Part shown: positions 10,638 to 54,758 of the stretch, in pieces
Numbering within the stretch: position 1 is the stretch's first letter
Layout of the letters: each line of letters starts with the position of its first letter
Source of the DNA: an uncultured Microthrixaceae bacterium
GTDB taxonomy: Bacteria > Actinomycetota > Acidimicrobiia > Acidimicrobiales > VFJN01
Assembly (NCBI GenBank): GCA_963715505.1
Contig: OY970242.1
Coordinates: forward strand, 2,683,788-2,747,787
DNA: 64,000 nucleotides
Direction: 5' to 3'
The notes under the pieces: generated by a model
Told to the model about the DNA's origin: nothing
Databases searched by the model: none
What the model saw: the letters and a program-made list of their open reading frames with translations, nothing else
Translations under genes and position numbers: made by a program

Positions 10638-10676
10638 GGCGCAATGATGACAGCCAGCCACGACGAGCGACACTCC

Positions 10677-10724: not shown

Positions 10725-10812
10725 CGCCCGCTGCGAGCGTGGAGCCGCCACCGCCGGGCCATGTGCCGGCGATCCCTCTGCCCACCACTCCTACCTGGAG
10801 GAACGAAACCCG

Positions 10813-33636: not shown

Positions 33637-34626
33637 CTAGGGCTGACCGCCGGCGTTGGGGTTGCGGTTGGCCTGTCCGGTGTCGCTGGCGTTGCCCGCG
33701 TTGCCGTTGGCGTTGGCGTTGCCCTGGCCGTTGGCGTTGGCGTCGTCCTGCGCATCCGCGTTGCCCTGGCGGTGGGCGTTGGCGTTGGCGTTGCCCGCGC
33801 TGCCGTTGGCGCTGCCCTGGCCGTTGGCGTTGCCCGCGCTGCCGTTGGCGCTGCCCTGGCCGTTGGCGTTGCCCTGGCCGTTGCTGGCGGGCGGGTCGGC
33901 GGGCGCCCCGGAACCGCCCGGCGTCGCAGGGTCGGAGCTGTTGCCACCGGCGTTGCTGTGCTCCGGCGGGGCTCCCGGGTCAGGGTTGCCACCGGCGCCG
34001 GGTGGTTCGGGCGGTGCGGCCGGGGTCGCCGGCTCTCCGTCGCCAGGCGTGCCCGGGTCCCCCGGCGTGGCGCCGCCGGGCGTCGGTGCCTCGATCCCGT
34101 CCTCGCCCTCGGCGCCACGCTCGCGCGCTTCGTCGCCGCGCCCGCGCCCCTTGTCGAGGCGGCCGCCGTCGTCACGCTCCTCGGCGCGGGGCACCTCGAC
34201 GCCGACGAGCTCCGCGGCCGACGACACCACGTTCTGGACGCCCGCCGGGAGGCTGTTCTGCGACGCACCCACACCGACCCCCACGAGCATCGCGGCCGCT
34301 GCGCCCGCGACGATGGCGGTCTTCGCCGCGGCGAGGGTCAGGGCCCGGCGTGGCGCGAGTGGCGTGACCACCGACTCGGCCAGCTGGCGGCGCAGCGCCG
34401 CGCCCATCTCGGGCACGTCGTCGTGGCGCACGTGGCGCCGCAGGGCCCGCGCCAGCTCGGCGATGGGCGCGAGGTCCTCGCCGCCCGCGGGCACGGACCC
34501 GCGGAGCAGCTTGTCCACGTCGCGATCGGAGAGTGCGCCGAGCCTTGCCATCCAGGCATGGTCAACGTCGTCGGGCGAGGCCGAGATACGGCCGGTGAGG
34601 TCGGCGGGGCGATGCTCGTCAGTCAC
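33637..34626 (-). CDS. putative anti-sigma factor: N-terminal cytoplasmic domain, one TM helix, and a long disordered Pro/Gly then Asn/Gly/Ala/Gln repeat tail
   Basis: GTG 34626 overlaps the sigma-factor stop (GTGACTGA). TM helix: TAIVAGAAAAMLVGVGVGA. The tail reads ...GNANGQGSANGSAGNANGQGSANGSAGNANANAH.... Confidence 0.55.
   Translation of the reverse strand: MTDEHRPADLTGRISASPDDVDHAWMARLGALSDRDVDKLLRGSVPAGGEDLAPIAELARALRRHVRHDDVPEMGAALRRQLAESVVTPLAPRRALTLAAAKTAIVAGAAAAMLVGVGVGASQNSLPAGVQNVVSSAAELVGVEVPRAEERDDGGRLDKGRGRGDEARERGAEGEDGIEAPTPGGATPGDPGTPGDGEPATPAAPPEPPGAGGNPDPGAPPEHSNAGGNSSDPATPGGSGAPADPPASNGQGNANGQGSANGSAGNANGQGSANGSAGNANANAHRQGNADAQDDANANGQGNANANGNAGNASDTGQANRNPNAGGQP
33790..33867. 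repeat. perfect 39-bp tandem duplication inside the anti-sigma tail
   Basis: GTTGCCCGCGCTGCCGTTGGCGCTGCCCTGGCCGTTGGC occurs twice (33790-33828, 33829-33867). It is embedded in degenerate GTTGGC/GTTGCC hexamer repeats from about 33655 to 33895. Confidence 0.85.
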
Positions 34627-35200
34627 GGCTGGCGTCCTCGCGCTCGAGGTGTCGGCGCAGCGTGGCCAGCGCCCGGTGCTGCAGGGACTTGATGGCGCCC
34701 CGACGCTTGCCCAGCGCGATGGCGGTGTCCTCCAGCGAGAGGTCGGCGACGACGCGCAGCAGCAGCACGTCGCGCTGGTCGGGGGAGAGCACCTCGAGCA
34801 GCGCGCGGAGGCGGTCGTCGCCGAGCGCGTCGAGCGCGTCGACCTCCACGTCGCCGACGATGGCGCCCTCGGTGATCTCGGCGTCGACCAGGCGGGGCCG
34901 CCGGCCGGTGGCCCGGCGCTCGTCGACCATGCGGTGGTGCGCGATCGTGAAGACCCACGACCGGAAGCCCGCCGCGTCGCCCGTGAAGCGGGCCAGGTTG
35001 CGGTGGACCTGCGCCAGCACCTCGTTGGTGACGGCGTCGACGTCGTGCACGCCGTGCCAGCGCAGGTAGCCGGCGACCGACGGGGCCAGCGACCGGTAGA
35101 TGCGCTCGAAGGCGCCGACCGAGCCCGCCTTCGCCGCGTCGACATCGCCCGCCAGCGGATCCGACCCGGCATCCCGCGGCGTCACCACGACCGCCGGCAA
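34619..35200 (-). CDS. ECF-type RNA polymerase sigma factor
   Basis: Region 2: FERIYRSLAPSVAGYLRWHGVHDVDAVTNEVLAQVHRNLARF...FRSWVFTIAHHRMVDERR. Region 4: LSPDQRDVLLLRVVADLSLEDTAIALGKRRGAIKSLQHRAL. The start is TTG 35200 or GTG 35188/35185. Confidence 0.85.
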   Translation of the reverse strand: MPAVVVTPRDAGSDPLAGDVDAAKAGSVGAFERIYRSLAPSVAGYLRWHGVHDVDAVTNEVLAQVHRNLARFTGDAAGFRSWVFTIAHHRMVDERRATGRRPRLVDAEITEGAIVGDVEVDALDALGDDRLRALLEVLSPDQRDVLLLRVVADLSLEDTAIALGKRRGAIKSLQHRALATLRRHLEREDASRD

Positions 35201-35751: not shown

Positions 35752-36699
35752 GTGCATCCGTTGCCCAAGGAGCGCGTCGAACGCGACGAGGAGGATCTCG
35801 TCCGCCTCTATCTGACCGACATCGGTCAGTACCCGCTGCTGACGAAGGACGACGAGGTCCGGCTTGCCCAGGCGATCGAGGCGGGCAACGAGGCACGCAC
35901 CGAGCTCGACGCCGGCGGCAAGGACGTCACCCCCGCCCGCCGTCGCGAGCTGCGCCGCACGGCGCGCCACGGCGAGACGGCCGAGCGCACGTTCGTGCAG
36001 TCGAACCTGCGCCTCGTGGTGTCGATCGCCAAGAAGTACCAGGCGTCGGGCCTGCCCCTCCTCGACCTCATCCAGGAGGGCAACCTCGGGCTGATGCACG
36101 CCGTCGAGAAGTTCGACTGGCGCAAGGGGTTCAAGTTCTCCACCTACGCCACGTGGTGGATCCGCCAGGCGATCACCCGCGGCATCGCCAACACCGGCCG
36201 CACGATCCGCCTCCCCGTCCACGCCGGCGACACCCTCGCCCGGCTCCAGAAGGCCCGCGCCCGCCTCGAGCTGAAGCTGGGCCGGCCCGCCACCCTCGCG
36301 GAGCTCTCGGCCGAGGTCGAGATGCCCGAGGACAAGGTCACCGAGGCACTGCGCTTCGCCGCCGAACCGCTGTCGCTGTCCGAGCCCCTGCGCGAGGACG
36401 GCGACGCCGAGCTCGGCGACGTCGTGGAGGACCGCTCCGCCGAGTCGCCCTTCGAGGTGGCCGCCACGGCGCTGCTCCCCGAGGAGATCAACCGGCTCCT
36501 CGCGCCGCTCGACGACCGCGAGCGGGAGATCCTCAAGCTCCGCTTCGGGCTCGACCGCGGCGAGCCGCGCACGCTCGAAGAGGTCGGCGAGCACTTCAAC
36601 CTGACACGTGAGCGCATCCGCCAGATCGAGGCGCGCGCCATGTCGAAGCTGCGCCACCCCTCGTCAGACACCGGCGCTCGCGACCTGCTGGCGGTCTAG
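35752..36699 (+). CDS. sigB: group-2 (principal-like) sigma-70 factor
   Basis: DLVRLYLTDIGQYPLLTKDDEV...NLRLVVSIAKKY...LDLIQEGNLGLMHAVEKFDWRKGFKFSTYATWWIRQAITR...TLEEVGEHFNLTRERIRQIE. Confidence 0.9.
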   Translation: MHPLPKERVERDEEDLVRLYLTDIGQYPLLTKDDEVRLAQAIEAGNEARTELDAGGKDVTPARRRELRRTARHGETAERTFVQSNLRLVVSIAKKYQASGLPLLDLIQEGNLGLMHAVEKFDWRKGFKFSTYATWWIRQAITRGIANTGRTIRLPVHAGDTLARLQKARARLELKLGRPATLAELSAEVEMPEDKVTEALRFAAEPLSLSEPLREDGDAELGDVVEDRSAESPFEVAATALLPEEINRLLAPLDDREREILKLRFGLDRGEPRTLEEVGEHFNLTRERIRQIEARAMSKLRHPSSDTGARDLLAV

Positions 36700-37643
36700 C
36701 GGCGCGGCGCCGGGAGCCGGCGCCGCCAGGTGTGGCTAGCCTCGCGCTCCATGAAGAAGCTGCTCCTCCTCATCGCCCTCATCGCCCTCGCCAGCGTCGC
36801 CGCCAAGAAGGTCCGCGCCGTCTGAGCCGTGCTGGGCGGGGCGACTGCCCCCGCCCGCCGCCACAGCCACCACGCGCCCGCCGCCGCCCCGAGCGCGGCC
36901 GCGCCCCCACCCATGGCCGCGGCCTGGCGGGCCCCCGGCATCGGCACTCGCTCCCGGAGCGGCACCTCGAGCCGGAAGCGCTCCACCTGCCACCCGCGCT
37001 GGCGCGCCACCCGCTCGAGCTCGCGGTCGGGGTTCACGGCGACGGCGTGCCCGACCGCCGCGAGCATCGGGATGTCGGTCGCCGAGTCGGAGTAGGCCCA
37101 GCAGTGATCGAGGTCCAGGCCGTCACGAGCGGCCACCTCCTCGATGACGAGCGCCTTCTCGGGCCCGTACACGTAGCGCTCGGTGCGACCCGAGTAGCGG
37201 CCCTCCTCGTCGAGCTCCGCGCGGGTGGCGATGGCCTCGTCGGCGCCGAGCAGCCGGGCGATGGGCGCCACCACCTCCTCGGGTGACGCCGACACGATGA
37301 AGACCTTGTGCCCCCATGCCCGGTGGGCGCGGATCCGCTCCAGCGCCTCGTCGAAGACGATCGGTTCGATGATGTCGCCGAGCGTGTCGCGCACGAGGGC
37401 GGAGATCTCCGACTGGTCCCATCCCTTCGTGAGGCGCAGCACCGACGCCCGCAGCTTCTCCAGCTTCTCGGGCGTGGCACCGAACTGCGCGTAGAGGAGC
37501 TGCCCCCAGGCTGCCCGGAGCATGAGGCGACGGGTCAGCATCCCGGCACGGTGCAGCGGTCGGCTGAAGGCCACCATCGACGCCTTCGCGATGACCGTCT
37601 TGTCGAGGTCGAAGAATGCGGCGGCGCGGCGCTCGGGGACCAC
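36696..37643 (-). CDS. HAD-IB family hydrolase with a C-terminal membrane anchor
   Basis: GTG 37643. Sequence: VVPERRAAAFFDLDKTVI (motif I), FIVSASPEEVV, AYSDSATDIPML, then AAMGGGAAALGAAAGAWWLW. The last ~45 aa are of doubtful quality. Its stop overlaps the sigB stop in CTAG (36696-36699). Confidence 0.75.
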   Translation of the reverse strand: MVPERRAAAFFDLDKTVIAKASMVAFSRPLHRAGMLTRRLMLRAAWGQLLYAQFGATPEKLEKLRASVLRLTKGWDQSEISALVRDTLGDIIEPIVFDEALERIRAHRAWGHKVFIVSASPEEVVAPIARLLGADEAIATRAELDEEGRYSGRTERYVYGPEKALVIEEVAARDGLDLDHCWAYSDSATDIPMLAAVGHAVAVNPDRELERVARQRGWQVERFRLEVPLRERVPMPGARQAAAMGGGAAALGAAAGAWWLWRRAGAVAPPSTAQTARTFLAATLARAMRAMRRSSFFMEREASHTWRRRLPAPRR

Positions 37644-37798: not shown

Positions 37799-38446
37799 AT
37801 GCTCGTCGCCTGCTGGTCGTCGAAGGGCGGCTCGGGGACCACCGTGGTCGCCGCCTCGCTGTCGTTGCTGCTCGCCCGGCGCGGCGCCGGGGGCGCGGTG
37901 CTGGCCGACCTGGCCGGCGACGCGCCAGCCGCGCTCGGGCTCCCGGAGCCGACGGGGCCCGGGCTGGCGGGTTGGCTTGCCACCGGGCCCGACGTGCCGG
38001 CCGACGCGCTCGCCCGCCTCGAGATCAACGCCGAGCCGGGCCTGGCGCTGCTGCCTCGCGGCGACGGCCCGCTGGCGGAGGAGCGCGCCGAGGTGCTCAC
38101 GGCACTGCTGACCAGCGACCCGCGCGCCGTCGTCGTCGACTGCGGCGTCGACCCCGCCGGGGCAGCCCGGGCCGTCGCTGCGGGCGCCACGCGCTCCGTC
38201 CTCGTCACGCGTGCCTGCTTCCTGGCGCTGCGCCGGGCCCTCGCCGCGGCGATCCGACCCTCCGAGATCGTGCTGCTCACCGAACCCGGGCGCTCCCTCA
38301 CCCGCATCGACGTCGAGGACTGCATCGGTGCGCCCGTCGTCGCCGAGGTCACCGTCGATCCCGTCGTCGCCCGCGCCGTCGACGCGGGCCTGCTCGCCGC
38401 CCGCCTGCCGCGCGGCCTCGCCCGGGAGCTGGGCCGTGCGGCCTGA
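37799..38446 (+). CDS. TadZ/Ssd-like ParA/MinD-fold protein with a degenerate P-loop
   Basis: ATG 37799 follows GGAGGGA. Sequence: MLVACWSSKGGSGTTVVAASL (KGGSGTT in place of KGGxGKT). It is the first gene of the tad operon. Confidence 0.65.
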   Translation: MLVACWSSKGGSGTTVVAASLSLLLARRGAGGAVLADLAGDAPAALGLPEPTGPGLAGWLATGPDVPADALARLEINAEPGLALLPRGDGPLAEERAEVLTALLTSDPRAVVVDCGVDPAGAARAVAAGATRSVLVTRACFLALRRALAAAIRPSEIVLLTEPGRSLTRIDVEDCIGAPVVAEVTVDPVVARAVDAGLLAARLPRGLARELGRAA

Positions 38447-39608
38447 CGATCCTGAGGCGTCGACCCTCGTCGAGGAGGTCCACGGGCGGCTGCTCCATGC
38501 CGACCCGGCGCAGGTCGCCGACCTCACCCGCATCACCGAGCACGTGCGCTGCGTGCAGCCCCTGCTGCCCGAGGCCCAGGTCGCCGCCATCGCCACGGCC
38601 GTGTGGGCCCGCGCCACGGGCCTCGGGCCGCTCGAGCAGGTCGTCGCCGACCCCGCCGTCACCGAGGTGATGGTCAACGGCGCCGGTGACGTGTGGACCG
38701 AGCGGGCTGGGCGCCTGGAGCGATCCGACGTCGTGCTCGAGCGGTCCGAGGTGGCGCTGCTCGTGGAGCGCATCGTCGGGCCGCTCGGCCTGCGGGTCGA
38801 TCGCACGTCGCCGATCGCCGACGCACGACTCCCCGACGGCTCGCGGGTCAACGTCGTCGTCCCGCCGCTGGCGGTCGACGGGCCCTGCATCACGGTCCGG
38901 CGCTTCGGCGCACGACCGATCCCGCTCGCCGAGCTGTGCCCGCCGGGGATCGCCGAGCTGCTCGCCTGGGCGGTGGGGGCCCGGAGCAACATCATGGTGA
39001 GCGGCGGTACGGGAGCGGGCAAGACGACCGTGCTCAACGCGCTGGGCGCCGTCCTGCCGCCCGAGGAGCGCATCATCACGGTCGAGGACACTGCGGAGCT
39101 GCGCCTCCCCGGACGGCACGTGGTGCGCCTCGAGGGCCGCCCGGGCACCGCCGACGGGCTCGGCGCCATCACCGTGCGCCAGATGGTGCGCAACGCCTTG
39201 CGCATGCGCCCCGACCGCATCGTCGTCGGCGAGGTCCGGGGCCCCGAGGCGCTCGACATGCTCTGGGCGATGAACACGGGCCATGAGGGCTCGCTGTCGA
39301 CCTGCCACGCCAACTCGCTCGTCGATGCGCTCCGCCGGCTGGAGGTCATGGTGCTCTCCGCCGGGCTCGACCTGCCCCTGGCCGCAGTCCGCGACCAGCT
39401 CACCTCCGCCCTCGATCTCGTGGTGCAGGTCGCTCGCCTCCCCGGCGGTCGGCGTGGCGTCGTGGCCGTCGGCGAGGTGATCGATCCGCCACCGACCCGC
39501 GGCCCCCGCATCCGAGAGCTGGCCGGTCCGGCCGGCCTCGACTGCCTGCCGGAGCGCCCCGTGCGAGCAGCCGACGCACCGGCGCCGCAGCGGCGGTGGT
39601 GCCGGTGA
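38436..39608 (+). CDS. tadA: Tad/Flp pilus assembly ATPase (CpaF/TadA family)
   Basis: GTG 38436 overlaps the previous gene by 11 nt. Sequence: VTEVMVNGAGDVW...DARLPDGSRVNVV..., Walker A SGGTGAGKTT, ITVEDTAEL, RMRPDRIVVGEVRG, MNTGHEGSLST.H. Confidence 0.9.
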   Translation: MRPDDPEASTLVEEVHGRLLHADPAQVADLTRITEHVRCVQPLLPEAQVAAIATAVWARATGLGPLEQVVADPAVTEVMVNGAGDVWTERAGRLERSDVVLERSEVALLVERIVGPLGLRVDRTSPIADARLPDGSRVNVVVPPLAVDGPCITVRRFGARPIPLAELCPPGIAELLAWAVGARSNIMVSGGTGAGKTTVLNALGAVLPPEERIITVEDTAELRLPGRHVVRLEGRPGTADGLGAITVRQMVRNALRMRPDRIVVGEVRGPEALDMLWAMNTGHEGSLSTCHANSLVDALRRLEVMVLSAGLDLPLAAVRDQLTSALDLVVQVARLPGGRRGVVAVGEVIDPPPTRGPRIRELAGPAGLDCLPERPVRAADAPAPQRRWCR

Positions 39609-40480
39609 CGCCGCTCGTGGCCGGCGCCGCCGGCGCCGTCGCCGTCGTCGTCGTGGCGCTCGCCGTCGGCCCGACGCCGGCCGGTCGGCCCCGTCCGCTG
39701 CCCGCCACGGCCGTGGCGCGCTCGCCCCGGGGCGGATGCCCTGCCTGGGTGGCCGAGGGCTGCCGGCAGCTCGGCGGCGCGATCGCGCCGGGCCACGCCT
39801 GGACGGTGCTCCGCTGCGCCGCGGCCGGGGCGGCACTGGTGGCGGCCTCCACGGCCGGACCCGCCGGAGCGGCGATCGTGATCGCTGCCGCCCTCGGCTG
39901 TCCGCCGCTGCTGCGTCGCGGCCTGCGCCGCCGGCGCCTCCTCGAGCGAGACCTGCAGCTCCCCGGCGCGGTCGAGCGCATCGCTTCGGCCGTGCGATCC
40001 GGCGCAGCCCTCGGGCCGGCGCTGGTCGACGTGGCAGAGCTGAGCGACGGCCCGCTCGGTGAGGAGCTGCGGATGGTCGCAGCTCGGATCCGCCACGGCG
40101 CGGGCGTCGATGCGGCGCTGGCGGGGTGGTCGTCGCACGCGGATGCCTCGCCTGACGTCGTGCTGGTGGCATCGGCGCTCGGCCTGGGGGCCGAGTCCGG
40201 CGGGCAGGTGGCGCGCGCCATCGACGCGGTGGCAGCCACCTTGCGCGAGCGCCGGGAGCTGCGCGGCGAGGTGCGGGCCCTGGCGACGCAGGCGCGCAGC
40301 TCGGCGTGGGTGCTCGCCGCGGCACCGCTGCTCTTCGCCGCTCTCGTCGCCAGCATCGAGCCGGGCGCCCTGCGCTTCCTGCTCACCACGCCGGTCGGGG
40401 TGGGCTGCCTCCTCGCCGGTCTGCTCCTCGACGCCGCCGGCACGATGTGGATGGCACGCATCGTCCGCGAGGCGTCATGA
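39596..40480 (+). CDS. tadB: type II secretion system F-family membrane protein (TadB-like)
   Basis: Overlaps the tadA stop. T2SSF-type core (LPGAVERIASAVRSGAALGPAL...) with TM segments at both ends. Confidence 0.7.
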   Translation: MVPVTPLVAGAAGAVAVVVVALAVGPTPAGRPRPLPATAVARSPRGGCPAWVAEGCRQLGGAIAPGHAWTVLRCAAAGAALVAASTAGPAGAAIVIAAALGCPPLLRRGLRRRRLLERDLQLPGAVERIASAVRSGAALGPALVDVAELSDGPLGEELRMVAARIRHGAGVDAALAGWSSHADASPDVVLVASALGLGAESGGQVARAIDAVAATLRERRELRGEVRALATQARSSAWVLAAAPLLFAALVASIEPGALRFLLTTPVGVGCLLAGLLLDAAGTMWMARIVREAS

Positions 40481-41247
40481 GCCTGGCCGTGGCTGTCGGT
40501 GCCCTGGCGGCGGCGGTGGTCGGCTGCGCCGTGGCGCCGAGCCGACCCAGCCGCCGCCCGGTGCGCCCGGTGGCGCTGCGTCCCCCGGCGACGCCGCCGA
40601 TGGCGCTCGCCCGCTGGGGGGCGCGCTTCCGGGCCGTCGCCCGGATCCCCGCCTCGCCGCTGCCCGACGCGGGTCTCGGCGTGGTCGCCGCCTTGCTCGT
40701 GGCGCTGTTCGCCTGGGCTCCCCCGCTCGCCCTCCTCGCCGGCCTGGGGGTGTGGGCACACGCCCGGATCCGGGCCCGACGGGCGCATCGAGCTCGCAGC
40801 CGGCAGATCATCGAGGCGCTGCCCGACGGCGTCGACCTGCTCCTCCTCTGCGTCGGCGCGGGCCTCTCGCTCCCCCTCGCGCTCCCGCTCGTCGCCTCCC
40901 GCTCGGCCTCGCCGCTGGCCGGCGCGCTCGCGTCGGCGCATCGCGCCGCGGCGCGTGGGAGCCCTCGCGCCGATGCGCTGCTCGACGCCCTGCATCCGCT
41001 GGGCGACCGCGCCCTCGCGCTCGGCCACGTCCTCGTCGACCACCTCCGCTACGGCACACCCCTCGCAGCCGGCCTCGAACGACTCGGCAGCGAGCTGCGC
41101 TCGGATCGGCGGCGGCGGGCGGAGGAGGCGGCGCGGCGGGTGCCCGTGCGCCTCCTGGTCCCGCTCGTCACCTGCGTGCTGCCCGCCTTCGCGCTCCTCA
41201 CCGTCGTCCCGCTGCTCGCCGCCTCGCTCCGCTCGCTCCCCACCTGA
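40477..41247 (+). CDS. tadC: type II secretion system F-family membrane protein (TadC-like)
   Basis: Its ATG overlaps the tadB stop (ATGA). Sequence: QIIEALPDGVDLLLLCVGAGLSLPLAL...PVRLLVPLVTCVLPAFALLTVVPLL. Confidence 0.7.
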   Translation: MSLAVAVGALAAAVVGCAVAPSRPSRRPVRPVALRPPATPPMALARWGARFRAVARIPASPLPDAGLGVVAALLVALFAWAPPLALLAGLGVWAHARIRARRAHRARSRQIIEALPDGVDLLLLCVGAGLSLPLALPLVASRSASPLAGALASAHRAAARGSPRADALLDALHPLGDRALALGHVLVDHLRYGTPLAAGLERLGSELRSDRRRRAEEAARRVPVRLLVPLVTCVLPAFALLTVVPLLAASLRSLPT

Positions 41248-41341
41248 CCCCCGCGACCACTCGTACCGCCGGCTCCCCCGCGGCGGGCCGACTCGGGCCC
41301 ACGGCCCCGCACCGCAACCCGCCATCCCATGGAGGTCAACC

Positions 41342-41566
41342 ATGCTCCGGACCCTCGTGTCCCTCCAGGTCCTCGCCCTCACGGCGAGCGACCACATCCA
41401 GCAGCGGCTCCGCGCCGACCGCGGCCAGTCCACCGCCGAGTACGCGCTCGTGCTGCTCGGCGCGGCCGGCGTGGCGCTCCTGCTCGCCGCCTGGGCGACG
41501 AAGTCGGACCGCATCACCCGGCTGCTCAACTCGGTGCTCGACCGCGTCCTCGCGCAGGTCAGCTGA
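41342..41566 (+). CDS. flp: Flp-type prepilin (actinobacterial DUF4244-like, 74 aa)
   Basis: GGAGGT lies 5 nt upstream of the ATG. Sequence: ...ADRGQSTAEYALVLLGAAGVALLLAAW, i.e. the G/xxxxEY processing motif followed by a hydrophobic helix. Confidence 0.65.
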   Translation: MLRTLVSLQVLALTASDHIQQRLRADRGQSTAEYALVLLGAAGVALLLAAWATKSDRITRLLNSVLDRVLAQVS

Positions 41567-41974
41567 GTGCGGCGGCGGCGCGGCGGCTCCGGTCGCCAGG
41601 ACGGGCAGGCGTCGGTGGAGCTGGCGCTGCTGCTCCCCGTCGTCGTCCTGCTGCTCCTGGCGGTCCTCCAGGTCGGGCTCCTCGCACGTGACGTCGTGCT
41701 GGTCACCCATGCATCCCGGGAGGCCGTCCGCGCCGCCGCCACCGACCACGATCCCGCTGCGGCCCGTCGCGCGGCCGCCTCCTCCAGCGGTCTCGACGGC
41801 GACCGTCTCCGCGTGGCGGTCACCGGCCGTGGAGCGCCCGGCAGCCGCGTGTCGGTGGTCGTGACGTACCGGGCGCCGACCTCGGTGCCGCTGGTCGGCG
41901 CGCTGCTGGGCGATCGAACCCTGCGGGCGGCGGCGACGATGCGCGTGGAGGGCCCGAGCCCTGAACGGGGCTGA
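41567..41974 (+). CDS. TadE-like pseudopilin
   Basis: GTG immediately follows the flp stop. Sequence: GQASVELALLLPVVVLLLLAVLQVGLLARDVVLVTHASREAVRAA, a typical TadE N-terminus. Confidence 0.7.
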   Translation: MRRRRGGSGRQDGQASVELALLLPVVVLLLLAVLQVGLLARDVVLVTHASREAVRAAATDHDPAAARRAAASSSGLDGDRLRVAVTGRGAPGSRVSVVVTYRAPTSVPLVGALLGDRTLRAAATMRVEGPSPERG

Positions 41975-42159
41975 CCGAACGGGATAAATCGGGATCAACC
42001 ACCGCGAAGGGCACAAGATTCAGGCCACGCACAGTGGTCACCGTGGAAGGATTGCGCCCACACCCTGTCGAACCAGCAGCCACAGCACGATGCGGGCAGG
42101 GCTCTAGCATCACGACATTGCACCACGGGGGCCTCGGGCCCGGCGGGAAGGACCTCGAC

Positions 42160-43542
42160 ATGCGTACGCGGATCACAGCGATCGTTGCCATCACCTCGGT
42201 GCTGGCCCTGACCCTCATGAGCCCAGCAGCGGCCCAGACGCCCGATGCGCCCGACCAGTTCGGGTCCTACGGCGCCGCGGGCACCGCCACGGCGCTCACC
42301 CTGACCCTGCTGGGCCAGGAGCTCGCGGTCTCCAACACCTCCGCCGGCGTCGGCTCCGGCGCCGCCGGCGAGGGCCCGCAGGCCATCGCCAACGGCGCAG
42401 CCCTGCTGCTCGCCGGCACCCCCGTGCCCGGCGACGCACTCGCCACCGCGCCCGGCGGCCCCGCCGAGAACGAGGCCTGCGCGGCCGACGTGAACCTCGG
42501 CGAGCTGACGGGCGGGGCGCTCTCCGCCCTCGACCTCGGCCTGGCCTGCGTGCACACGTCGGCGACCGACGCCGGTGGTGCCCCCGGAGCCCACAGCGAG
42601 TCAGGCGAGCTGATCATCACCATCACCTCGCCGGCGGGCACGGCACTCGAGCCCATCCTCACCCCGCTCTTCGAAGGCGTGGAGCAGATCACGACGCCGG
42701 TGCTCGACGCGCTCGCACCGCTGCTCGACGGTGTCGAGGAGGTCACCCAGATCGAGCTCGACACGATCCTCGACGACCTCATCACCGACCTCCAGGACGA
42801 GCTGTTCGTGCTCGCCCAGATCGTCGTCGCACCCACCGCCAGCCAGGCGGCGGCCACCGGCGACGGCGTGTTCGCCCGGGCGGGCGGCAACGGCGTCACG
42901 ATCAACCTCCTGCCGGGCCTCGCCGCGACGCTGGCCGACCTGGGCCTCGACATCGCCCCGACGGTGGCCCCGCTCCTCAGCGTGCAGCTCGGTCAGGGCG
43001 TCGCCGAGGTGTCCCGGGACCCCGAGTCGGCGGAGGCGTCCACCGACGGCAGCGCCGCCCAGCTCCTCTCGATCGAGGCCACCGACGAGCTCGGCATCCT
43101 CCAGGAGCTCACCGGCCAGCTCACCGGCGCCATCAACGGCCTGGCGATCGACCAGCTCGCCTGCGAGGCGGGCAACCCCCTCGCCGACGTGCTCTGCATC
43201 GACCTCGGCAGCGTGCGCGACCTGAGCGACGCCGAGCTCGCCGCTCGCGGGCTCGACTTCGGTCCCGGCACCGCCGGTGTCGAGGCCAGCGCCGCCAGCA
43301 TCCAGATCCTGCCGATCGCGGCCGACGCCCTTGGCGGCTCGGTGCTGGGCCTCAGCCTCGCCTCCGCCACGGCGGCCGCCAACGCCGAGCTGGTCAGCCC
43401 CTCCTCAGGCCCCGGACCCGACGTCGAGGAGCAGCGCTCGCTGCCGCGGACCGGTGGCGAGGCAGCGCTGCCCGTCACCCTCGGCCTGCTCGCCGCCGCC
43501 TCGGCCGGCTTGGTCCTCGTTCGACGCACGCGTACCGTCTGA
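42160..43542 (+). CDS. LPXTG-anchored surface protein, acidic Ala/Leu/Thr/Gly-rich, no recognisable domain
   Basis: ATG 42160 is in frame with ORF 42034... Signal peptide: MRTRITAIVAITSVLALTLMSPAAAQ. C-terminal sorting signal: LPRTGGEAALPVTLGLLAAASAGLVLVRRTRTV. Confidence 0.75.
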   Translation: MRTRITAIVAITSVLALTLMSPAAAQTPDAPDQFGSYGAAGTATALTLTLLGQELAVSNTSAGVGSGAAGEGPQAIANGAALLLAGTPVPGDALATAPGGPAENEACAADVNLGELTGGALSALDLGLACVHTSATDAGGAPGAHSESGELIITITSPAGTALEPILTPLFEGVEQITTPVLDALAPLLDGVEEVTQIELDTILDDLITDLQDELFVLAQIVVAPTASQAAATGDGVFARAGGNGVTINLLPGLAATLADLGLDIAPTVAPLLSVQLGQGVAEVSRDPESAEASTDGSAAQLLSIEATDELGILQELTGQLTGAINGLAIDQLACEAGNPLADVLCIDLGSVRDLSDAELAARGLDFGPGTAGVEASAASIQILPIAADALGGSVLGLSLASATAAANAELVSPSSGPGPDVEEQRSLPRTGGEAALPVTLGLLAAASAGLVLVRRTRTV

Positions 43543-43600
43543 TGTCGATCGGCCGGCGATCCGACGACCGCTCGGATCGCCGGCCCGACTCCCCCACGCC

Positions 43601-44380
43601 ATGGCCCCGCTGATCGCCACCGTCGCCATCGTCATCGTGGTTGCCGCGCTCTCGGTCTACGGGCCGCTGGCACGGGCCCCCCGCCCGGCGCACCTGCGCA
43701 GCGACTCGGAGCCGATCCCCGTGCCGAGCCCCGAGCTGGGCGACGACCCGATCAGCCGGCTCATCGGCGTGCTGCGCCAGCGGCGCTGGGCGCGCATGGG
43801 CCTGACCACGCTGTCCGTGGGCCTGCTCGTGGGTGCGGTGGCCACCATCGGCTACCCCTTCTACACGAACCTCTACCAGCAGCGGCTGCAGGGCGAGCTC
43901 GACCGCCAGCTGGCCAGCCCCGACCTGAAGCAGGCGTACATCGAGCGTCAGGTCGGCGTCGGCGACAGCCTCACGCAGCTGCTCATCCCCGACATCGACG
44001 TCGATGTCGTCGTCGTGGAGGGCACCACCGCCAGCGCCCTGCGAGCCGGGGCCGGGCACTACGCCGACACCCCGCTGCCCTGCGAGATCGGCAACGTGGC
44101 GATCGCCGGGCACCGGACCACCTACGGCCGGCCCTTCCACAACGTCGACCTCCTCGAGGTGGGAGACGAGATCACCCTCAACACGCCCATCGGCAGCTGC
44201 ACCTACGCCGTGAGCGAGGAGCCCTTCACGGTGTCGCCCAGCCAGATCGAGGTGGTCGCCAACACGCCCGACGAGGCGATGCTGACCCTCACCACGTGCC
44301 ACCCCAAGGGCAGCGCCCGGCAGCGCCTCATCATCAAGGCGACGCTGGTTCGCAGCGACATCGGATCGACCGCCACATGA
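43601..44380 (+). CDS. class E-like sortase (transpeptidase)
   Basis: N-terminal TM helices, then LLIPDIDVDVVVVEGT...GAGHYADTPLP...GNVAIAGHRTTYG.PF...LTLTTCHP...RLIIKATL (His, TLxTC Cys, Arg triad). Confidence 0.85.
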   Translation: MAPLIATVAIVIVVAALSVYGPLARAPRPAHLRSDSEPIPVPSPELGDDPISRLIGVLRQRRWARMGLTTLSVGLLVGAVATIGYPFYTNLYQQRLQGELDRQLASPDLKQAYIERQVGVGDSLTQLLIPDIDVDVVVVEGTTASALRAGAGHYADTPLPCEIGNVAIAGHRTTYGRPFHNVDLLEVGDEITLNTPIGSCTYAVSEEPFTVSPSQIEVVANTPDEAMLTLTTCHPKGSARQRLIIKATLVRSDIGSTAT

Positions 44381-45528
44381 TGCGCCGCACCGTCCTCGCG
44401 GCCACCACGATCGTGCTCGCCGCGGTGACGGCCGCTCCGGCCGCGCTCGCGGCACCCCAGGACTGGAACGGGTCGCAGGTCACGATGCCGGTGCCCCCGG
44501 AGCGGGTCTCGTCGTCGTCGTTCACCATCGCCTCGTCGATCCTGCGCGACTACGACGGGCGCTTCTACCGCGTCGACGCCACCACCGAGCTGCTCGCCCC
44601 GCCCGAGCAGGAGGCGGGCTGCACCACCAGCGCCGGGGCCACCGAGGTGGCGCGCGACGGCGCCAGCAACCGCCATGCCGCGGCCGCGCCGGGTCAGGCG
44701 AGCTGCAACGGCGTGTACACGATCAGGGTCACGGCCCGGCTGATCCAGACCACCACCTTCGGCGGTGGCGAGCGCGTGACCGACACCTACGTCCTCCCGC
44801 CCCATGAGATCCATGTGGTCGTGCCCCCGCCCGATGTGACCGCGGCGGCGGCCGCACCCTCCGACGACCGCTCGGTCGTCGTGGGCTGGACCCCCGTGGC
44901 CAACCCGCCGCCGGACATGCTGGGCTACGTCGTGGAGCGCGTCACCGCGAGCGGCGAGACGGCGACGATCGCCACGATCGACGACCCTGCCGCGAGCTCC
45001 TACACCGACACCGACACCCCTGCGGAGGGCGGCACGACGACCTACCGCGTGCGGGCCCGACGCTCCAGCCCCCAGGGCGAGGTCACCTCCGCCGCCGCTG
45101 CCGAGGCGCCGGCCGAGGTCGCGCCAGCGCCCCAGGAGCCCGACGATCCCGGCGGCGATCCCGATCCCGACGCACCCGGCGGCGACAGCGCTGGGGCCGG
45201 AGGCGGCGGCACCACGGGCGGAACGCCAGGCGGCGGTCGTGGGGCGCCGTTCCGGGCCCCGAACGTCGGTCGCAGCTCCGGCCGCGTCGTCCCGCCGCTC
45301 AGCGCGACGGTGACCACCCTCGACACCGGCTTCGATCAGGAGCTGCCCTTCGGTGACCGTGAGCTCGGTGGGGAGGACCCGGTGCTCCCCGACGACGAGT
45401 TCGCGTCGATGATCTACGACGACGAGGCAGGGCGCGGGCTGCTCATCCCGATCGCCACGGGCCTGCTGCTCGCCGTGTGGGCCGTCCACCTGCGCTACCT
45501 GGCCGCGGCCGCCAAGCCTCAGGAGTAG
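44377..45528 (+). CDS. secreted FN3-domain protein with a C-terminal TM anchor
   Basis: Its ATG overlaps the sortase stop (ATGA). Signal peptide: MMRRTVLAATTIVLAAVTAAPAALAAP. FN3-like block: VVVGWTPVANPPPDMLGYVVERV...TTTYRVRAR. A Pro/Gly/Asp linker follows, then the TM helix LLIPIATGLLLAVWAV. Confidence 0.65.
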   Translation: MMRRTVLAATTIVLAAVTAAPAALAAPQDWNGSQVTMPVPPERVSSSSFTIASSILRDYDGRFYRVDATTELLAPPEQEAGCTTSAGATEVARDGASNRHAAAAPGQASCNGVYTIRVTARLIQTTTFGGGERVTDTYVLPPHEIHVVVPPPDVTAAAAAPSDDRSVVVGWTPVANPPPDMLGYVVERVTASGETATIATIDDPAASSYTDTDTPAEGGTTTYRVRARRSSPQGEVTSAAAAEAPAEVAPAPQEPDDPGGDPDPDAPGGDSAGAGGGGTTGGTPGGGRGAPFRAPNVGRSSGRVVPPLSATVTTLDTGFDQELPFGDRELGGEDPVLPDDEFASMIYDDEAGRGLLIPIATGLLLAVWAVHLRYLAAAAKPQE

Positions 45529-45550
45529 CGCGCCGGGCCGGCCCGGTCCG

Positions 45551-47890
45551 TCACCCCTGGAGGATCCGGCGCAGCAGGGCGACGGCGGCGTGCTTGTCGA
45601 GGTGCTCGTTGCCGTTGCCGCACTTGGGCGACTGGACGCACGAGGGGCAGCCGGACTCGCAGGGGCAGGCGGCGATGCTCTCGAGCGTCGCCGCCAGGTG
45701 GCGGTCGCCGGCCTCGTAGCCGAGCTCGGCGACACCGGCACCGCCGGGCATGGCGTCGTAGATCACGATCGTCGGCCGGCCGGTGTCGGCCTGGCATGCC
45801 GTCGACACGCCGCCGACGTCCCACCGGTCGCAGATGGCGAACAGCGGCAGCATGCCGATGGCAGCGTGCTCGATGGCGTGGAGGGCGGCGGGCAGCCGGG
45901 TGCGGTCGAGCGCGGCCTCCTCGGCGAGGCGCGGGTCGACGACGTACCACAGTGCCCGCGTGTCGAGGCGTGCGCTGGGCAGGTCGAGCGCGGCGGTGGC
46001 CACCACGACGCCGGACAGCGACTCCTTGCGCTGGTAGCCCACGACCTGCGTCTCGACCTCTGCCTCGCCGAGGAACAGCCACGCCGCCCCGACCGGGCGC
46101 ACCTGCTCGGCCGACCGGAGCCGGATCCGCGTGTCGCTGCGCGCGACGGTGTAGGTCGATCCGTCGTCTGCCTCGACCACGGCCACGCCGGCATCGAGAT
46201 CGAGCGACTGCACGCGCCAGTGCTGGCCCTGATGGAGGTAGGAGGCACCGGGGTGGACCTGGGCCGGGGCCCGTGCCCGGTCGACGTCGCCGACCTGGCG
46301 CCCGCTGCCGGCGGCGACGATGCGCACGGGTGCACCCCCGGCGTTGCGCAGCCCCACGCCGTGCGTCGGCCAGCCGCTGCCGTTCCAGACCGCCATCGGC
46401 TCGCCGCGCCGGCCCCGGTGGCGCACGAGCAGCTCCTCGGCCAGGACCAGCCGCCGCACGCCGTCGTCGAGCGACCCCGGCCACCAGCGCGCATCGGCAT
46501 GGGTGAGGGGCAGCTCGTGCGCGGCGCAGCGCAGGTGCGGGTCGAGCACGAAGGGGTTCTCAGGGTTCACGACGGCGGGCTCGGGGCCGCGCTCGAGCAG
46601 CGCGTCGGGATGCGCCGCCAGCCACTGGTCGAGCTGGTCGTCGCCGGTGACCAGCACCGCCGCGGAGGCCTCACCATGGCGGCCGGACCGCCCCGCCTGC
46701 TGCCAGAACGACGCGATGGTGCCCGGGAAGCCGTCGAGGACGACGGCGTCGAGGCCGCCGACGTCGATGCCGAGCTCGAGGGCGGACGTGGCGATCACGC
46801 CGGAGAGCCTCCCGGCGAACAGGTCGTCCTCGATGGCGCGTCGCTCCTCGGCGAGGTAGCCGCCGCGGTAGGCCCGGATGCGGTTGGCGAGCCGGCGTGG
46901 CAGGCGACGGCGCACGTCGGCGGCCACGATCTCCACGCCTCGCCGGCTGCGAGCGAAGCCGAGCGTCGTGCAGCCCGCCTCCACCAGGCCCGCCACCACC
47001 GTGGCGGCCTCACCGTGGACCGACGCCCTGGCACCCGTGCGGGCGTCGAGCAGCGGTGGCTGCCAGAGGGCGAGCGTGCGAGGCCCGCGCGGCGACCCGT
47101 CGTCGAGCACCGGGGTGGTGTCGACCCCGGTGAGCGCAGAGGCCAGCCGCTGCGGTTCGCCGATGGTGGCCGAGGTGCAGATGAACACCGGATCGGCGCC
47201 GTGGTGCACCGCGAGTCGCCGCAGGCGCCGCAGCAGCTGCGCGACGTGGCTGCCGAAGACCCCCCGGAAGGCGTGGAGCTCGTCGACGACGACGTAGCGC
47301 AGGCGCCCGAGGAAGGTGGACCAGCGCTCGTGGTGGGGCAGCAGGCCGGCGTGGAGCATCTCCGGGTTGGTGAGCACGACCGTCGCGGTCTTGCGGATCC
47401 AGCTGCGCTCCTCGGAGCTGGCGTCACCGTCGTAGGCACCGGCCACCACCCCCGGGAGGTCGAGCTCGGTGAGGGCGCGGAGCTGGTCGTGTGCGAGCGC
47501 CTTGGTGGGGAACAGGACCAGGGCGGTACCGGGCCGGATGGGCGCCACGGCCGCCTCGGCGATCGGCAGCTGGTAGCAGAGCGACTTGCCCGAAGCCGTC
47601 CCGCTGGCCACGACGACGGAGCGCCCCGAGCGCGCCAGGTCGATCGCCTCGACCTGGTGGGTCCACAGCCGATGCTCGAGGCGCGCGCGGACCGAGGGCG
47701 GGAGCGGGCGGGCGAGCTCCGCGTGCCGCCCCGGGCGCGCCGGGAGCTCCACGAGGTGGATGAGCCGGGCCGGCAGCTGGTCGGGGGTGGGCCGCGAGGA
47801 CGCGGCGCGCGCCCGGTCGAGGCGCTCCAGCACTCCCGCGAACGAGGTGGCGCCGGCGCGATCGGGGAGCGGCAGGGGCAGGATGGCCAT
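45551..47890 (-). CDS. DEAD/DEAH-box helicase with a C-terminal DUF1998 zinc module (MrfA/YprA-like)
   Basis: ATG 47890 (MAILPLPLPDRAG...). Motif I ASGTASGKSL, motif II VVVDELH, then SATIG. C-terminal four-Cys module: CPCESGCPSCVQSPKCGNGNEHLDK. Confidence 0.9.
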   Translation of the reverse strand: MAILPLPLPDRAGATSFAGVLERLDRARAASSRPTPDQLPARLIHLVELPARPGRHAELARPLPPSVRARLEHRLWTHQVEAIDLARSGRSVVVASGTASGKSLCYQLPIAEAAVAPIRPGTALVLFPTKALAHDQLRALTELDLPGVVAGAYDGDASSEERSWIRKTATVVLTNPEMLHAGLLPHHERWSTFLGRLRYVVVDELHAFRGVFGSHVAQLLRRLRRLAVHHGADPVFICTSATIGEPQRLASALTGVDTTPVLDDGSPRGPRTLALWQPPLLDARTGARASVHGEAATVVAGLVEAGCTTLGFARSRRGVEIVAADVRRRLPRRLANRIRAYRGGYLAEERRAIEDDLFAGRLSGVIATSALELGIDVGGLDAVVLDGFPGTIASFWQQAGRSGRHGEASAAVLVTGDDQLDQWLAAHPDALLERGPEPAVVNPENPFVLDPHLRCAAHELPLTHADARWWPGSLDDGVRRLVLAEELLVRHRGRRGEPMAVWNGSGWPTHGVGLRNAGGAPVRIVAAGSGRQVGDVDRARAPAQVHPGASYLHQGQHWRVQSLDLDAGVAVVEADDGSTYTVARSDTRIRLRSAEQVRPVGAAWLFLGEAEVETQVVGYQRKESLSGVVVATAALDLPSARLDTRALWYVVDPRLAEEAALDRTRLPAALHAIEHAAIGMLPLFAICDRWDVGGVSTACQADTGRPTIVIYDAMPGGAGVAELGYEAGDRHLAATLESIAACPCESGCPSCVQSPKCGNGNEHLDKHAAVALLRRILQG

Positions 47891-47998: not shown

Positions 47999-48344
47999 AT
48001 GACGGTCGAGGTGGAGCTGGTGGGCGATTGGAGCGTCATCCGCGTCGCCGGGGAGATCGACGTCGCCACCGCGCCACGCCTGCCGCGAGCAGATCGTCGC
48101 CCTGGTGACCAACGGCCAGCGCCGGCTCGTGCTCGACCTCGAGTCCGTCGAGTTCATGGACTCCACGGGCCTGGGCGTCGTCGTGGGCGCGCTCAAGCGG
48201 ACCCGCTCGCACGGCGGCGATCTGCGCTTGGTCTCGACGCGGCCGGCGCTGCGCCGACTCTTCGAGCTCACCTCCCTCGACCGCGCGCTTCCGTTGGCGG
48301 ACAGCGTCGCCGACGTGGTCTCGGGCGGGACGGCCGAGGGCTGA
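47999..48344 (+). pseudogene. STAS-domain anti-sigma-factor antagonist with an apparent +1 frameshift at about 48083
   Basis: The N-terminus ([28 protein letters not shown]) is in the frame of ORF 45590..48526. The remainder ([39 protein letters not shown]...) is in the frame of ORF 48105..48344. The junction reads CGC CTG C CGC GAG. Confidence 0.65.
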
Positions 48345-48347
48345 GCC

Positions 48348-48779
48348 GTGACCCGCGTGGTGGAGCTCGAGATCCCGCCGCGCAGCGATCACCTGGCCCT
48401 GGTGCGACTCGTCGTCACCAGCGCGGCCAGCCTCGGCGGCGGGTTCGCGGATCGCCGCGTCGACGACCTGCGCCTGGCCGTCTCGGAGGCGTGCGCCAAC
48501 GCCGTCGACGCTGCGCTGGGGGCTGATGGCGGTGGCGTGGTGACGGTTCGCATCGAGGTCGACGAGGCGGCGGTGGCGGTCACGGTCACCGATCACGCCG
48601 GTGGCTTCGAGCCTGCCGAGGTCGAGGCGATCCCGGGCGCCACCGAGCCCGGCCGGCTGCGCCACGAGCACGGGCTGGGCATCCCGCTGATGCGCTCGCT
48701 GGTCGACGAGGTGACCTTCACGCGCACCGCCGACGGCACAGCCGTGCGCCTCACGGTGCGCGAGGACAGCGCCCGCTGA
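48348..48779 (+). CDS. anti-sigma-factor serine kinase (RsbW/SpoIIAB-like HATPase)
   Basis: Starts 4 nt after the STAS stop. Sequence: LRLAVSEACANAV (N-box), VTDHAGGF, GLGIPLMRSLVDEV (G-boxes). Confidence 0.8.
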   Translation: MTRVVELEIPPRSDHLALVRLVVTSAASLGGGFADRRVDDLRLAVSEACANAVDAALGADGGGVVTVRIEVDEAAVAVTVTDHAGGFEPAEVEAIPGATEPGRLRHEHGLGIPLMRSLVDEVTFTRTADGTAVRLTVREDSAR

Positions 48780-51871: not shown

Positions 51872-51920
51872 CGGACGGACCCTACCGGTCCGGCCGGGCA
51901 CAGCGACGGGCCCGCTCCCC

Positions 51921-52032
51921 CATGTGACGGTCAGGCGATCTGCGGCACACCGCAGGCTCCGCTGAGAGCTGCTGCCTCCCGGCCCTGACTCGGTTCACGG
52001 ACTGCGATTGCACAGGACCCGACCGCCACATG
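51921..52032 (-). ncRNA. ffs: signal recognition particle RNA (small/4.5S type); ends +/-10 nt
   Basis: The minus strand reads ...GUGAACCGAGUCAGGGCCGGGAGGCAGCAGCUCUCAGCGG..., matching the domain IV core GUCAGGUCCGGAAGGAAGCAGC of E. coli 4.5S. The closing helix pairs CAUGUGGCGGUC with GACCGUCACAUG. It is in the classical position upstream of dnaX. Confidence 0.75.
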
Positions 52033-52096
52033 CGAGAGCGGGCCGACCGACACGATAGCCTCATCGGTCCTGGCTGCCACCCCCGGGTGGACCCCT

Positions 52097-52184
52097 GGAG
52101 GGGTGCGAGAGCGGCCGAATCGGCACGCTTGGAAAGCGTGTGAGGGGCAACCCTCCGTGGGTTCGAATCCCACCCCCTCCGCCA
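52097..52184 (+). tRNA. tRNA-Ser (anticodon GGA), CCA encoded
   Basis: Acceptor GGAGGGG/CCCCTCC. Anticodon arm CACGC-TTGGAAA-GCGTG. Long variable arm. T-arm GTGGGTTCGAATCCCAC. Confidence 0.9.
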
Positions 52185-52198
52185 CGCTCGTCGCTGCG

Positions 52199-53285: not shown

Positions 53286-53395
53286 CCCGCCCGCCCTCCG
53301 ACCATCCGCCCGGACGGCCCCAGCGCCGTCCGATCGAACCCCTCCATGCAAGGTTCGACACCGCTGCGCCCCTTCCTGCCAACCCCAAACCCCGC

Positions 53396-53444
53396 GTTTC
53401 GGCGGCACTTGCTACGGGTCTTGCTGGACTTCTGCCGCAGGAAC
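53396..53444. repeat. GGTCTTG-loop hairpin element, copy 4 (degenerate left arm)
   Basis: GTTTCGGCGGCACTTGCTACG-GGTCTTG-CTGGACTTCTGCCGCAGGAAC. The right half is near-identical to 11907-11934. Confidence 0.65.
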
Positions 53445-54523: not shown

Positions 54524-54758
54524 CTCGTCCATCCTCTCGGGGCCTTGCGAGCCCGATGGCCATGGACGCCGGTTTCGCCGTTCGCTCCCCACCAGGCCAG
54601 GCGACCAGGTACAGCCAGGCGGATCGTCACGTTCGCCCTTCGACGGAGGTACCGCCGATGAAGGCACTATCGCGACGAACGGCCGAGCGCGCAAGGGTTC
54701 CCTCGGCCGGCCCGCGTGCCTCGCCCGCAAGGCGGGGAACCGCCCGTACGCTCGGCGC

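Follow-up and report, generated by a model that had tools for sequence, protein, structure and literature searches.

Organization of the locus

In the 64-kb window analyzed here (the whole stretch of 64,000 nucleotides, from contig OY970242.1 of an uncultured Microthrixaceae bacterium; G+C content approximately 73 %), a Tad/Flp pilus operon is followed on the same strand by a three-gene sortase cassette. The cassette encodes an LPXTG protein, a sortase and a membrane protein with FN3 domains. The series of nine co-directional genes from the tadZ-like gene to the FN3 gene was confirmed by open reading frame (ORF) listing, Pfam and NCBIfam, and its arrangement is beyond chance, as it recurs in 18 independent related Acidimicrobiia loci. 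The window holds a single TadE-like gene, a single flp gene, a single sortase gene and a single LPXTG-type protein. The closest named loci are those of uncultured Microthrixaceae and Acidimicrobiales metagenome-assembled genomes.

The gene calls, motifs and junctions described in a first-pass annotation of this DNA were confirmed by these listings and by motif checks. The tadZ and tadA genes overlap by 11 nt and tadA and tadB by 13 nt, tadB and tadC share an ATGA, as do the sortase and FN3 genes, and flp and tadE abut. The motifs KGGSGTT, G/QSTAEYA, G/QASVE, LPRTG with a transmembrane (TM) segment and RRTRTV, and TLTTCHP were all located in the window. The gene identities were also right, as judged by domain matches and, in the case of the FN3 protein, by a structure model in which two domains match tandem FN3 structures.

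Conservation of the arrangement

Related loci were drawn from genomes, metagenomes and exact look-up, and were compared to the window proteins by tblastn. The metagenome scan yielded nine loci with alignment A1 and no confirmed locus with alignment A2. The tadE gene was found directly 5' of the LPXTG gene in the window and 18 loci (two more were too short to judge), and the sortase gene directly 3' of it in 16 loci (four end too early). An FN3-type gene and then a convergent helicase gene complete the order in 12 loci. The order is also kept in the deep lineages L019, L020 and L021, whose LPXTG proteins are 27–29 % and TadA proteins 62–67 % identical to those of the window, and in which some outer flanks differ. 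Among the related loci, the LPXTG/sortase/FN3 trio was never seen away from tad.

When the proteins were ranked by identity to the window, a principal-type sigma factor (~97 %) and RecR (85 %) were followed by the sortase (62–78 % for the orthologues at the same position in 16 loci) and TadA (62–75 %). The lowest values were obtained for the LPXTG protein (27–65 %) and the FN3 protein (29–42 %). Such a ranking would be expected of exposed surface proteins that are served by a conserved enzyme.

A TadE search aimed at other lineages returned near orthologues only (67–85 % identical). Two tad loci, L022 and L023, were picked via TadE and not via the LPXTG protein. In the close relative L023 (8001-10405; GCA_030681555.1, contig JAUXRW010000026.1), tadE is followed by a gap of 88 nt and then by the sortase and FN3 genes, and there is no LPXTG gene. 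Either the substrate gene was naturally deleted or relocated, or its absence is an artefact of assembly. In L022 (8559-9915), the LPXTG gene is represented by two ORF calls, one of 281 and one of 180 aa, that jointly span the whole protein; the split is due to a frameshift, an error in sequencing or the gene being a pseudogene.

Distant paralogues of the LPXTG protein with LA/LPxTG tails were found at three unrelated loci, and no tad or sortase gene lies within 10 kb of any of them. The L017 paralogue (10001-11251, 416 aa) has a LARTG end and adjoins a lipoate synthase gene. The L024 (5761-7365, 534 aa) and L025 (7056-8891, 611 aa) paralogues each adjoin an ABC1 kinase gene.

In the literature library searched, we found no paper naming both Acidimicrobiia and sortase, and nothing on Tad pili and sortases that describes this arrangement.

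The LPXTG protein

The first gene of the cassette (42160..43542, + strand) encodes a protein of 460 aa with a Sec signal peptide and a beta-rich ectodomain. Its C-terminus, LPRTGGEAALPVTLGLLAAASAGLVLVRRTRTV, contains LPRTG, a TM segment and RRTRTV. The signal peptide, LPXTG motif, hydrophobic stretch and basic tail are thus all present, and the protein scored 16.7 bits against the TIGR01167 anchor model (cut-off 15.9). A possible upstream extension, from the GTG at 42034, was discarded, as most relatives have a closed frame there.

An exact look-up of the window protein gave no record, whereas a word-indexed search gave 94 relatives and a full profile search gave 221 representatives at 50 % identity, nearly all of them 400–475 aa long. 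The family consists mostly of unnamed metagenome sequences, and all recoverable organism names belong to Acidimicrobiia. The sorting signals include LPRTG (105), LPKTG (45) and LARTG (17). The P3 residue is Pro in ~87 % and Ala in ~13 % of the signals, the latter being LAxTG-type and chiefly LARTG.

The first-pass annotation had recognized no domain in this protein, and this was borne out by HMM searches and structure prediction. No Pfam domain other than the anchor motif was found in the window protein or in any of the 63 family members, the profile had no relative among PDB sequences, and no known adhesin family was matched. The AlphaFold model built from the 63-sequence alignment is confident (pLDDT 84.3, pTM 0.78) and is dominated by long antiparallel strands, plus three helical inserts. 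Foldseek comparison of this model with PDB and BFVD returned spurious porin-like beta meanders only (TM ≤ 0.25). No internal duplication was detected (hhalign of the N-half against the C-half, probability 1.6 %). The family appears to represent uncharacterised, putatively wall-anchored proteins with an apparently new fold.

It had also been suggested that the protein may be part of a covalently anchored fibril. If so, the sortase would polymerise it into a Gram-positive-type pilus or fibril, and two kinds of fibre would be encoded in one island. The LPXTG gene adjoins the sortase gene on the same strand, as this proposal would have it. However, there is one substrate gene and one sortase gene, and the sortase scored only ~76-77 bits against class C models compared to 134 bits for class E. 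The model shows neither a CnaB nor an Ig-type pilin fold. The mature protein (pI 4.05, GRAVY +0.38, 4 Cys) contains 0 Lys, 0 Met and 0 Trp, leaving no lysine for isopeptide polymerisation, and none of the family's invariant or nearly invariant columns holds a lysine. The lack of a conserved lysine and of any lysine in the mature protein argues against sortase-mediated polymerisation. We thus abandoned the fibril, which we regard as very improbable; judging by its sequence, the protein is predicted to be a wall-anchored monomer and not a sortase-built fibre.

The sortase

The second gene of the cassette (43601..44380, + strand) encodes a class-E-like sortase (PF04203, E = 1.4e-30). Its ORF opens at 43277, and the first ATG past the upstream stop, at 43601, is most likely the start codon. 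The catalytic His (AGHR), Cys (TLTTCHP) and Arg (RQRL) align with the catalytic residues of solved sortases. Among the sortase models, class E (NF033747) was the best with 134 bits, a score under the cut-off of 160; it was ahead by ~47 bits, class D models giving 81-87 bits. The L021 and L023 sortases behaved likewise, with class E best and under the cut-off.

The best PDB matches are Clostridium perfringens SrtD (CpSrtD, 4d70), A. oris SrtA (5utt) and C. diphtheriae SrtF (5uus). The GHY of the window sortase is matched in the alignment by a GHY in A. oris SrtA and C. diphtheriae SrtF and by a GHF in CpSrtD. In the SrtE1 structure paper, Tyr229 of the beta3/beta4 loop (F92 in CpSrtD) was proposed as the determinant for alanine at P3. 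By way of the alignment with SrtA, SrtF and CpSrtD and the F92 equivalence of that paper, the window sortase appears to keep the class E tyrosine. Since the family signals have either Pro or Ala at P3, this sortase subgroup seems to accept both residues. The LPRTG signal, which the first-pass annotation had contrasted with the LAxTG usual for class E sortases, presents no real conflict: the family is mostly LP(R/K)TG with ~13 % LAxTG-type signals, and the tyrosine is present.

Before the catalytic domain, the window sequence (43601-43870) encodes two hydrophobic segments, MAPLIATVAIVIVVAALSV and GLTTLSVGLLVGAVATIGY, which are ~45 residues apart. In the deep lineages, conservation of the first segment is not clear (the sortase of L021 has 207 aa), which leaves the topology and true start of the sortase uncertain.

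The FN3 membrane protein

The third gene of the cassette (44377..45528, + strand) encodes a type I membrane protein of 383 aa with a signal peptide, two FN3/Ig-like domains, a Gly/Pro-rich disordered stalk and a C-terminal TM helix. No Pfam match was obtained for the window protein, and weak PF00041 (fn3) matches were obtained in 6 of 12 relatives. In the AlphaFold model (pLDDT 76.8), two beta-sandwich domains (residues ~30-150 and 155-250) match tandem FN3 structures with a Foldseek probability of 1.0; the disordered tail keeps the whole-chain TM-scores low. The FN3 domains are followed by ~90 disordered Gly/Pro-rich residues and then by the TM helix. This helix and the acidic juxtamembrane motif DTGFDxxLPF...DPVLPDDE are the best-conserved parts of the protein.

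In the window and in 11 of the 12 complete loci, the stop codon of the sortase gene and the start of the FN3 gene overlap (RTGA or TAGTG). The overlap suggests that the FN3 protein is translationally coupled to the sortase. The FN3 protein probably works together with the sortase or with the protein that the sortase anchors.

The spacer between tad and the cassette

The conserved intergenic spacer (41975..42159, + strand) is 185 bp long, with a G+C content of 64.3 % vs 77.4 % for the tad genes. Its length in the relatives is mostly 150–250 bp. A two-part promoter-like motif, GTGGAAGGAT-N16-CGAA (42043..42072, + strand), resembles promoters of extracytoplasmic function (ECF) sigma factors and occurs once in the window (chance expectation 0.00). 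When 15 spacers were aligned, they shared CGTGG(G/A)AGGAT, ~16 nt and then (G)CGAA. A relaxed form, (T)GG(G/A/C)AGGA(T/A)(C/T)-N13-14-G(C/T)GAA, was found in 17 of 20 loci, ~115-160 nt 5' of the LPXTG start. The first element is AGGAAC in three deep lineages (AGGAAC-N13-14-G(C/T)GAA). In ECF-sigma promoters, the -35 element contains AAC and the -10 element contains CG, and by this general comparison the deep-lineage form of the spacer motif would be of the AAC...CG type. Transcription of the cassette probably starts from an ECF-sigma-like promoter of its own within the spacer.

Scans of the spacer detected neither a sigma-70-type promoter nor an intrinsic terminator, and because no terminator was seen, read-through from tad is possible. 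The first-pass annotation had held that the trio at unlinked loci, together with a strong terminator and an independent promoter in the spacer, would refute a combined island. The trio is tad-linked and there is no terminator; the promoter-like motif is the part of that combination which was found.

The spacer is no more structured than shuffled sequence (z = +1.0) and had no match in Rfam. A short G+C-rich hairpin, GGGCC-UCG-GGCCC (42129..42141, + strand), lies directly 5' of the Shine-Dalgarno sequence GGGAAGGA (42145-42152), and hairpins with differing stem sequences occur at the same site in most close relatives. It is a weak observation only, because its energy barely beats that of shuffled sequences (mean z = -0.74) and RNAalifold, applied to the MAFFT alignment, found none in common.

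The - strand at 33637-35200 carries an ECF sigma gene (34619-35200) and, after it, a gene for a probable anti-sigma protein. The probable anti-sigma protein has a long C-terminal low-complexity tail rich in Gly, Asn, Ala, Gln and Pro. This pair lies 7 kb upstream in the window and in four relatives, and was not found at that position in L002, L004, L009, L020, L022 and L023. A general link between the spacer motif and the nearby sigma gene was rejected because L004, L009 and L020 keep the motif with no sigma gene at that position.

The same observations bear on the proposal that the LPXTG protein is a stress-induced wall protein under an envelope-damage ECF sigma factor, with no role in adhesion or hydrophobicity and an accidental position beside tad. 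The ECF-like spacer motif and the presence of the sigma/anti-sigma pair in the window and four relatives are in its favour. However, the pair is missing from its place in six relatives, three of which retain the motif, and no sigma factor can be assigned from sequence. We therefore find this proposal rather improbable.

The Tad/Flp module and its flanks

The tad operon is an ordinary actinobacterial Tad/Flp (type IVc) system beside HAD-IB and TIGR03817 helicase genes. It begins with the tadZ-like gene (37799..38446, + strand), encoding a ParA/MinD-type protein with the Walker A motif KGGSGTT at residue 9. The TadZ assignment is based only on position, this motif and sub-threshold ParA/BcsQ matches. 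Its orthologues in related loci are 55–80 % identical, and the L021 orthologue matches PF01656 (CbiA). The tadA gene (38436..39608, + strand; start codon approximate) encodes the secretion ATPase (PF00437 T2SSE, E = 1.7e-56; Walker A GGTGAGKT), for which the best NCBIfam model is TIGR03819 'heli_sec_ATPase' with 296 bits, under the equivalog cut-off of 373. The platform protein genes tadB (39596..40480, + strand) and tadC (40477..41247, + strand) both match PF00482 (T2SSF) above the cut-off, with E-values of 2.2e-13 and 1.5e-12, respectively.

The flp gene (41342..41566, + strand), preceded by a GGAGG Shine-Dalgarno sequence 6 nt upstream, encodes a prepilin of 74 aa (PF14029 DUF4244, E = 2.6e-11, 43 bits vs cut-off 27) with the processing site RG/QSTAEYA at residue 28. 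The sole pseudopilin gene of the window, tadE (41567..41974, + strand), matches PF07811 (E = 1.1e-10) and scores 24 bits against NF041390 TadE_Rv3655c, under the cut-off. The tadE gene as annotated in the source genome is shorter by 16 codons (P0254). A phmmer search (E ≤ 1) of the 64 kb revealed neither a further TadE nor a further Flp. An additional TadE-domain gene of 176 aa is present in L007 (1259-1789, - strand), ~8 kb upstream of the tad operon and near an ECF sigma/anti-sigma pair; it has no counterpart in the window. A crude GxGD[VAIL][KR] scan of all six-frame window ORFs gave no credible match to a prepilin peptidase (TadV/PilD, family A24), whose gene may sit elsewhere in the genome, as in M. 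tuberculosis.

Upstream of the tadZ-like gene and divergent from it lies a gene for a HAD-IB family hydrolase (36696..37640, - strand; PF12710, E = 2.2e-32), whose product scored 181.6 bits against TIGR01490 (cut-off 98.3, NCBIfam). Its position is kept in all related loci with sufficient flank. Downstream, a DEAH-box helicase gene (45551..47890, - strand) is convergent with the FN3 gene and encodes DEAD, Helicase_C, WHD_HRQ1 and MZB (formerly DUF1998) domains. With 903 bits against TIGR03817 (cut-off 874), it carries the marker of the 'helicase/secretion neighbourhood' (TIGR03815-03819) beside the tad genes. The flanks are thus those of this actinobacterial neighbourhood; the first-pass annotation had matched them to the mycobacterial Rv3649-Rv3661 region.

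The FN3 gene and the convergent helicase gene are separated by 22 nt, and this gap contains a perfect palindrome, CCGGGCCGGCCCGG (45533..45546), read from the sequence. It could be a T-less bidirectional terminator and was missed by the terminator scan because it has no T run. Just past the helicase gene, a STAS anti-anti-sigma gene and an RsbW-like anti-sigma kinase gene were observed (48105-48779, + strand). They are kept there in most related loci, including L019 (STAS only) and L021.

In M. tuberculosis, the site that follows tadE is occupied by tadF. With one TadE-like gene in 64 kb, the cassette stands, as the first-pass annotation had stated, where a second pseudopilin gene is expected. 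This position invites the explanation that the cassette is an accessory of the Tad pilus which guides or anchors the Flp filament through the peptidoglycan, the sortase being there mainly for this purpose. The wall and FN3 proteins would then replace the missing TadF and the secretin complex of double-membrane bacteria. This explanation fits the linkage to tad that all loci of the tad-adjacent subfamily show despite their deep divergence. It also fits the 88 nt between tadE and the sortase-FN3 pair in L023, the lack of a separating terminator, and the conserved TM helix of the FN3 protein, which suggests a membrane partner. Nevertheless, a conserved promoter-like motif stands between the modules, the LPXTG gene can be missing with tad intact (L023), family paralogues exist without tad, and neither protein has pilin-like or secretin-like features. 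In addition, adjacency alone cannot separate function from a stable neighbourhood because the HAD and helicase flanks are equally conserved. We judge the accessory role unlikely without being negligible. The stricter claim, that in Acidimicrobiia the cassette truly belongs to the Tad apparatus and that the wall protein and the FN3 protein form its wall-spanning part in a single-membrane bacterium, is in our opinion likewise unlikely.

Proposed function of the cassette

We lean towards the explanation that the locus consists of two adjacent cell-envelope modules, in which the cassette is a general 'housekeeping'-type wall-anchoring operon that was lodged long ago in the Tad/helicase neighbourhood. 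The cassette would have entered the gap between tadE and the helicase gene in an ancestor of the sampled Acidimicrobiia and stayed there. In the proposed pathway, the LPXTG protein would be exported by Sec, and the class-E-like sortase would cut LPRT/G and join the threonine to peptidoglycan precursors. The wall would thereby acquire a beta-rich monomer that is very acidic and at the same time hydrophobic, and which probably sets surface hydrophobicity or adhesion. The single-pass FN3 protein, with its long disordered stalk, would probably dock onto the sortase or the substrate by its conserved TM/juxtamembrane segment. The unlinked paralogues, and the L023 locus in which no substrate gene adjoins the sortase gene, point to an enzyme with several substrates. 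The sortase is thus probably a general enzyme that also serves unlinked substrates and is not dedicated to the neighbouring gene.

Several points weigh against this explanation. The tad adjacency is unusually strict and persists in L019-L021 despite changed genes beyond the core flanks, and the sortase-FN3 pair remains beside tadE even in a locus with no LPXTG gene. Both fit a functional tie as well as inertia. The 'housekeeping' character is deduced from paralogues in other genomes, and the 64-kb window holds no second substrate. The sortase score falls under the class E cut-off, the promoter is predicted from a sequence motif, and the role of the LPXTG ectodomain in surface properties is putative.

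The first-pass annotation had proposed a combined adhesion island. As far as gene order is concerned, this stands, as the adjacency of the cassette and the tad operon is observed and conserved. Its functional sense is weakened by the promoter-like motif, the unlinked paralogues and L023.

Other features of the window

A c-di-GMP-II riboswitch (RF03169, 44 bits, above the gathering score) was found at 54559-54643 on the - strand. It sits just 5' of the ORF at 54119-54760 (- strand), which encodes a small secreted protein with a signal peptide and the probable start MDEMMSKKLW... Surface and adhesion genes are often controlled by c-di-GMP. A long ORF at 51882-53408 (- strand) encodes a probable secreted protein with a YALVVGIDDYPG stretch and a putative caspase-like (peptidase C14) appearance. 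The gene for SRP RNA (51926-52024) adjoins this ORF.

Comparison with known systems

All parts of the locus are of known kinds, and the novelty lies in the conserved arrangement, in a substrate family without a recognisable fold and in the sortase/FN3 pair. We know of no account of the passage of Tad/Flp pili through the thick wall of bacteria that have a single membrane. Most work on the actinobacterial Tad/helicase locus has, to our knowledge, been done in mycobacteria, organisms that lack sortases. A class-wide sortase cassette inside this locus is a concrete candidate for a wall-level pilus accessory, and if it were a Tad component it would be the first case of a sortase serving a type IV pilus. 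Even if the modules are independent, three elements are new: a putatively wall-anchored protein family with 221 representatives and an apparently new fold, a divergent class-E-like sortase subgroup with the class E tyrosine yet mostly LPxTG signals, and a conserved gene pair of a sortase and an FN3 membrane protein that may be a counterpart of SrtA-SafA. Among these organisms are relatives of Microthrix, a bacterium with a hydrophobic surface that is of importance for the foaming of wastewater.

The M. tuberculosis Tad/Flp locus (Rv3654c-Rv3660c) likewise has a HAD-IB gene upstream and a TIGR03817 helicase gene downstream. It differs from the locus described here in having both tadE and tadF, whereas one pseudopilin gene is present here, and in lacking the three-gene sortase cassette between tadE and the helicase gene. 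Compared to the TIGR03819 locus type, TadA is under the cut-off here (296 vs 373).

In the case of sortase-assembled Gram-positive pili, an LPXTG gene is also adjacent to a sortase gene. In contrast, there is no class C sortase, second pilin, pilin-motif lysine or Ig/CnaB fold here. LPXTG adhesins are also encoded together with secretion ATPase machines on Gram-positive conjugative elements, such as PrgA/PrgB/PrgC of pCF10. The likeness is that of wall-anchored surface proteins on the same strand as a VirB11/TadA-family ATPase machine, and the NCBI name of TIGR03819 is 'conjugal transfer-associated'. The locus here is instead a chromosomal, vertically inherited Tad pilus with a Flp pilin and not a type IV secretion channel, and we know of no sequence similarity to the Prg adhesins.

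The class E systems compared were SrtE1/SrtE2 and the chaplins of S. coelicolor, SrtE with CwpA/CwpB of A. missouriensis, SrtA-SafA of A. oris and SrtF of C. diphtheriae. The window sortase shares with them the best HMM class, the catalytic triad and the GHY, and its predicted substrate is likewise a hydrophobic wall-anchored protein. It differs in its score (134 vs cut-off 160), in having mostly LP(R/K)TG instead of LAxTG substrates, in its genomic position in a tad locus and in a substrate family unrelated to chaplins. SafA is a TM protein of ~52 aa with PGP and FPW motifs, encoded just 3' of the housekeeping sortase gene in Actinobacteria. The FN3 protein is not a SafA homologue, as it has 383 aa, the opposite topology and no FPW motif, and the position alone matches. 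Class E sortases render the surface hydrophobic via anchored chaplins in Streptomyces (PMC5148588) and via anchored CwpA/CwpB in Actinoplanes (PMC13251363). By analogy, the function of the cassette may parallel that of these hydrophobicity-conferring class E sortase systems.

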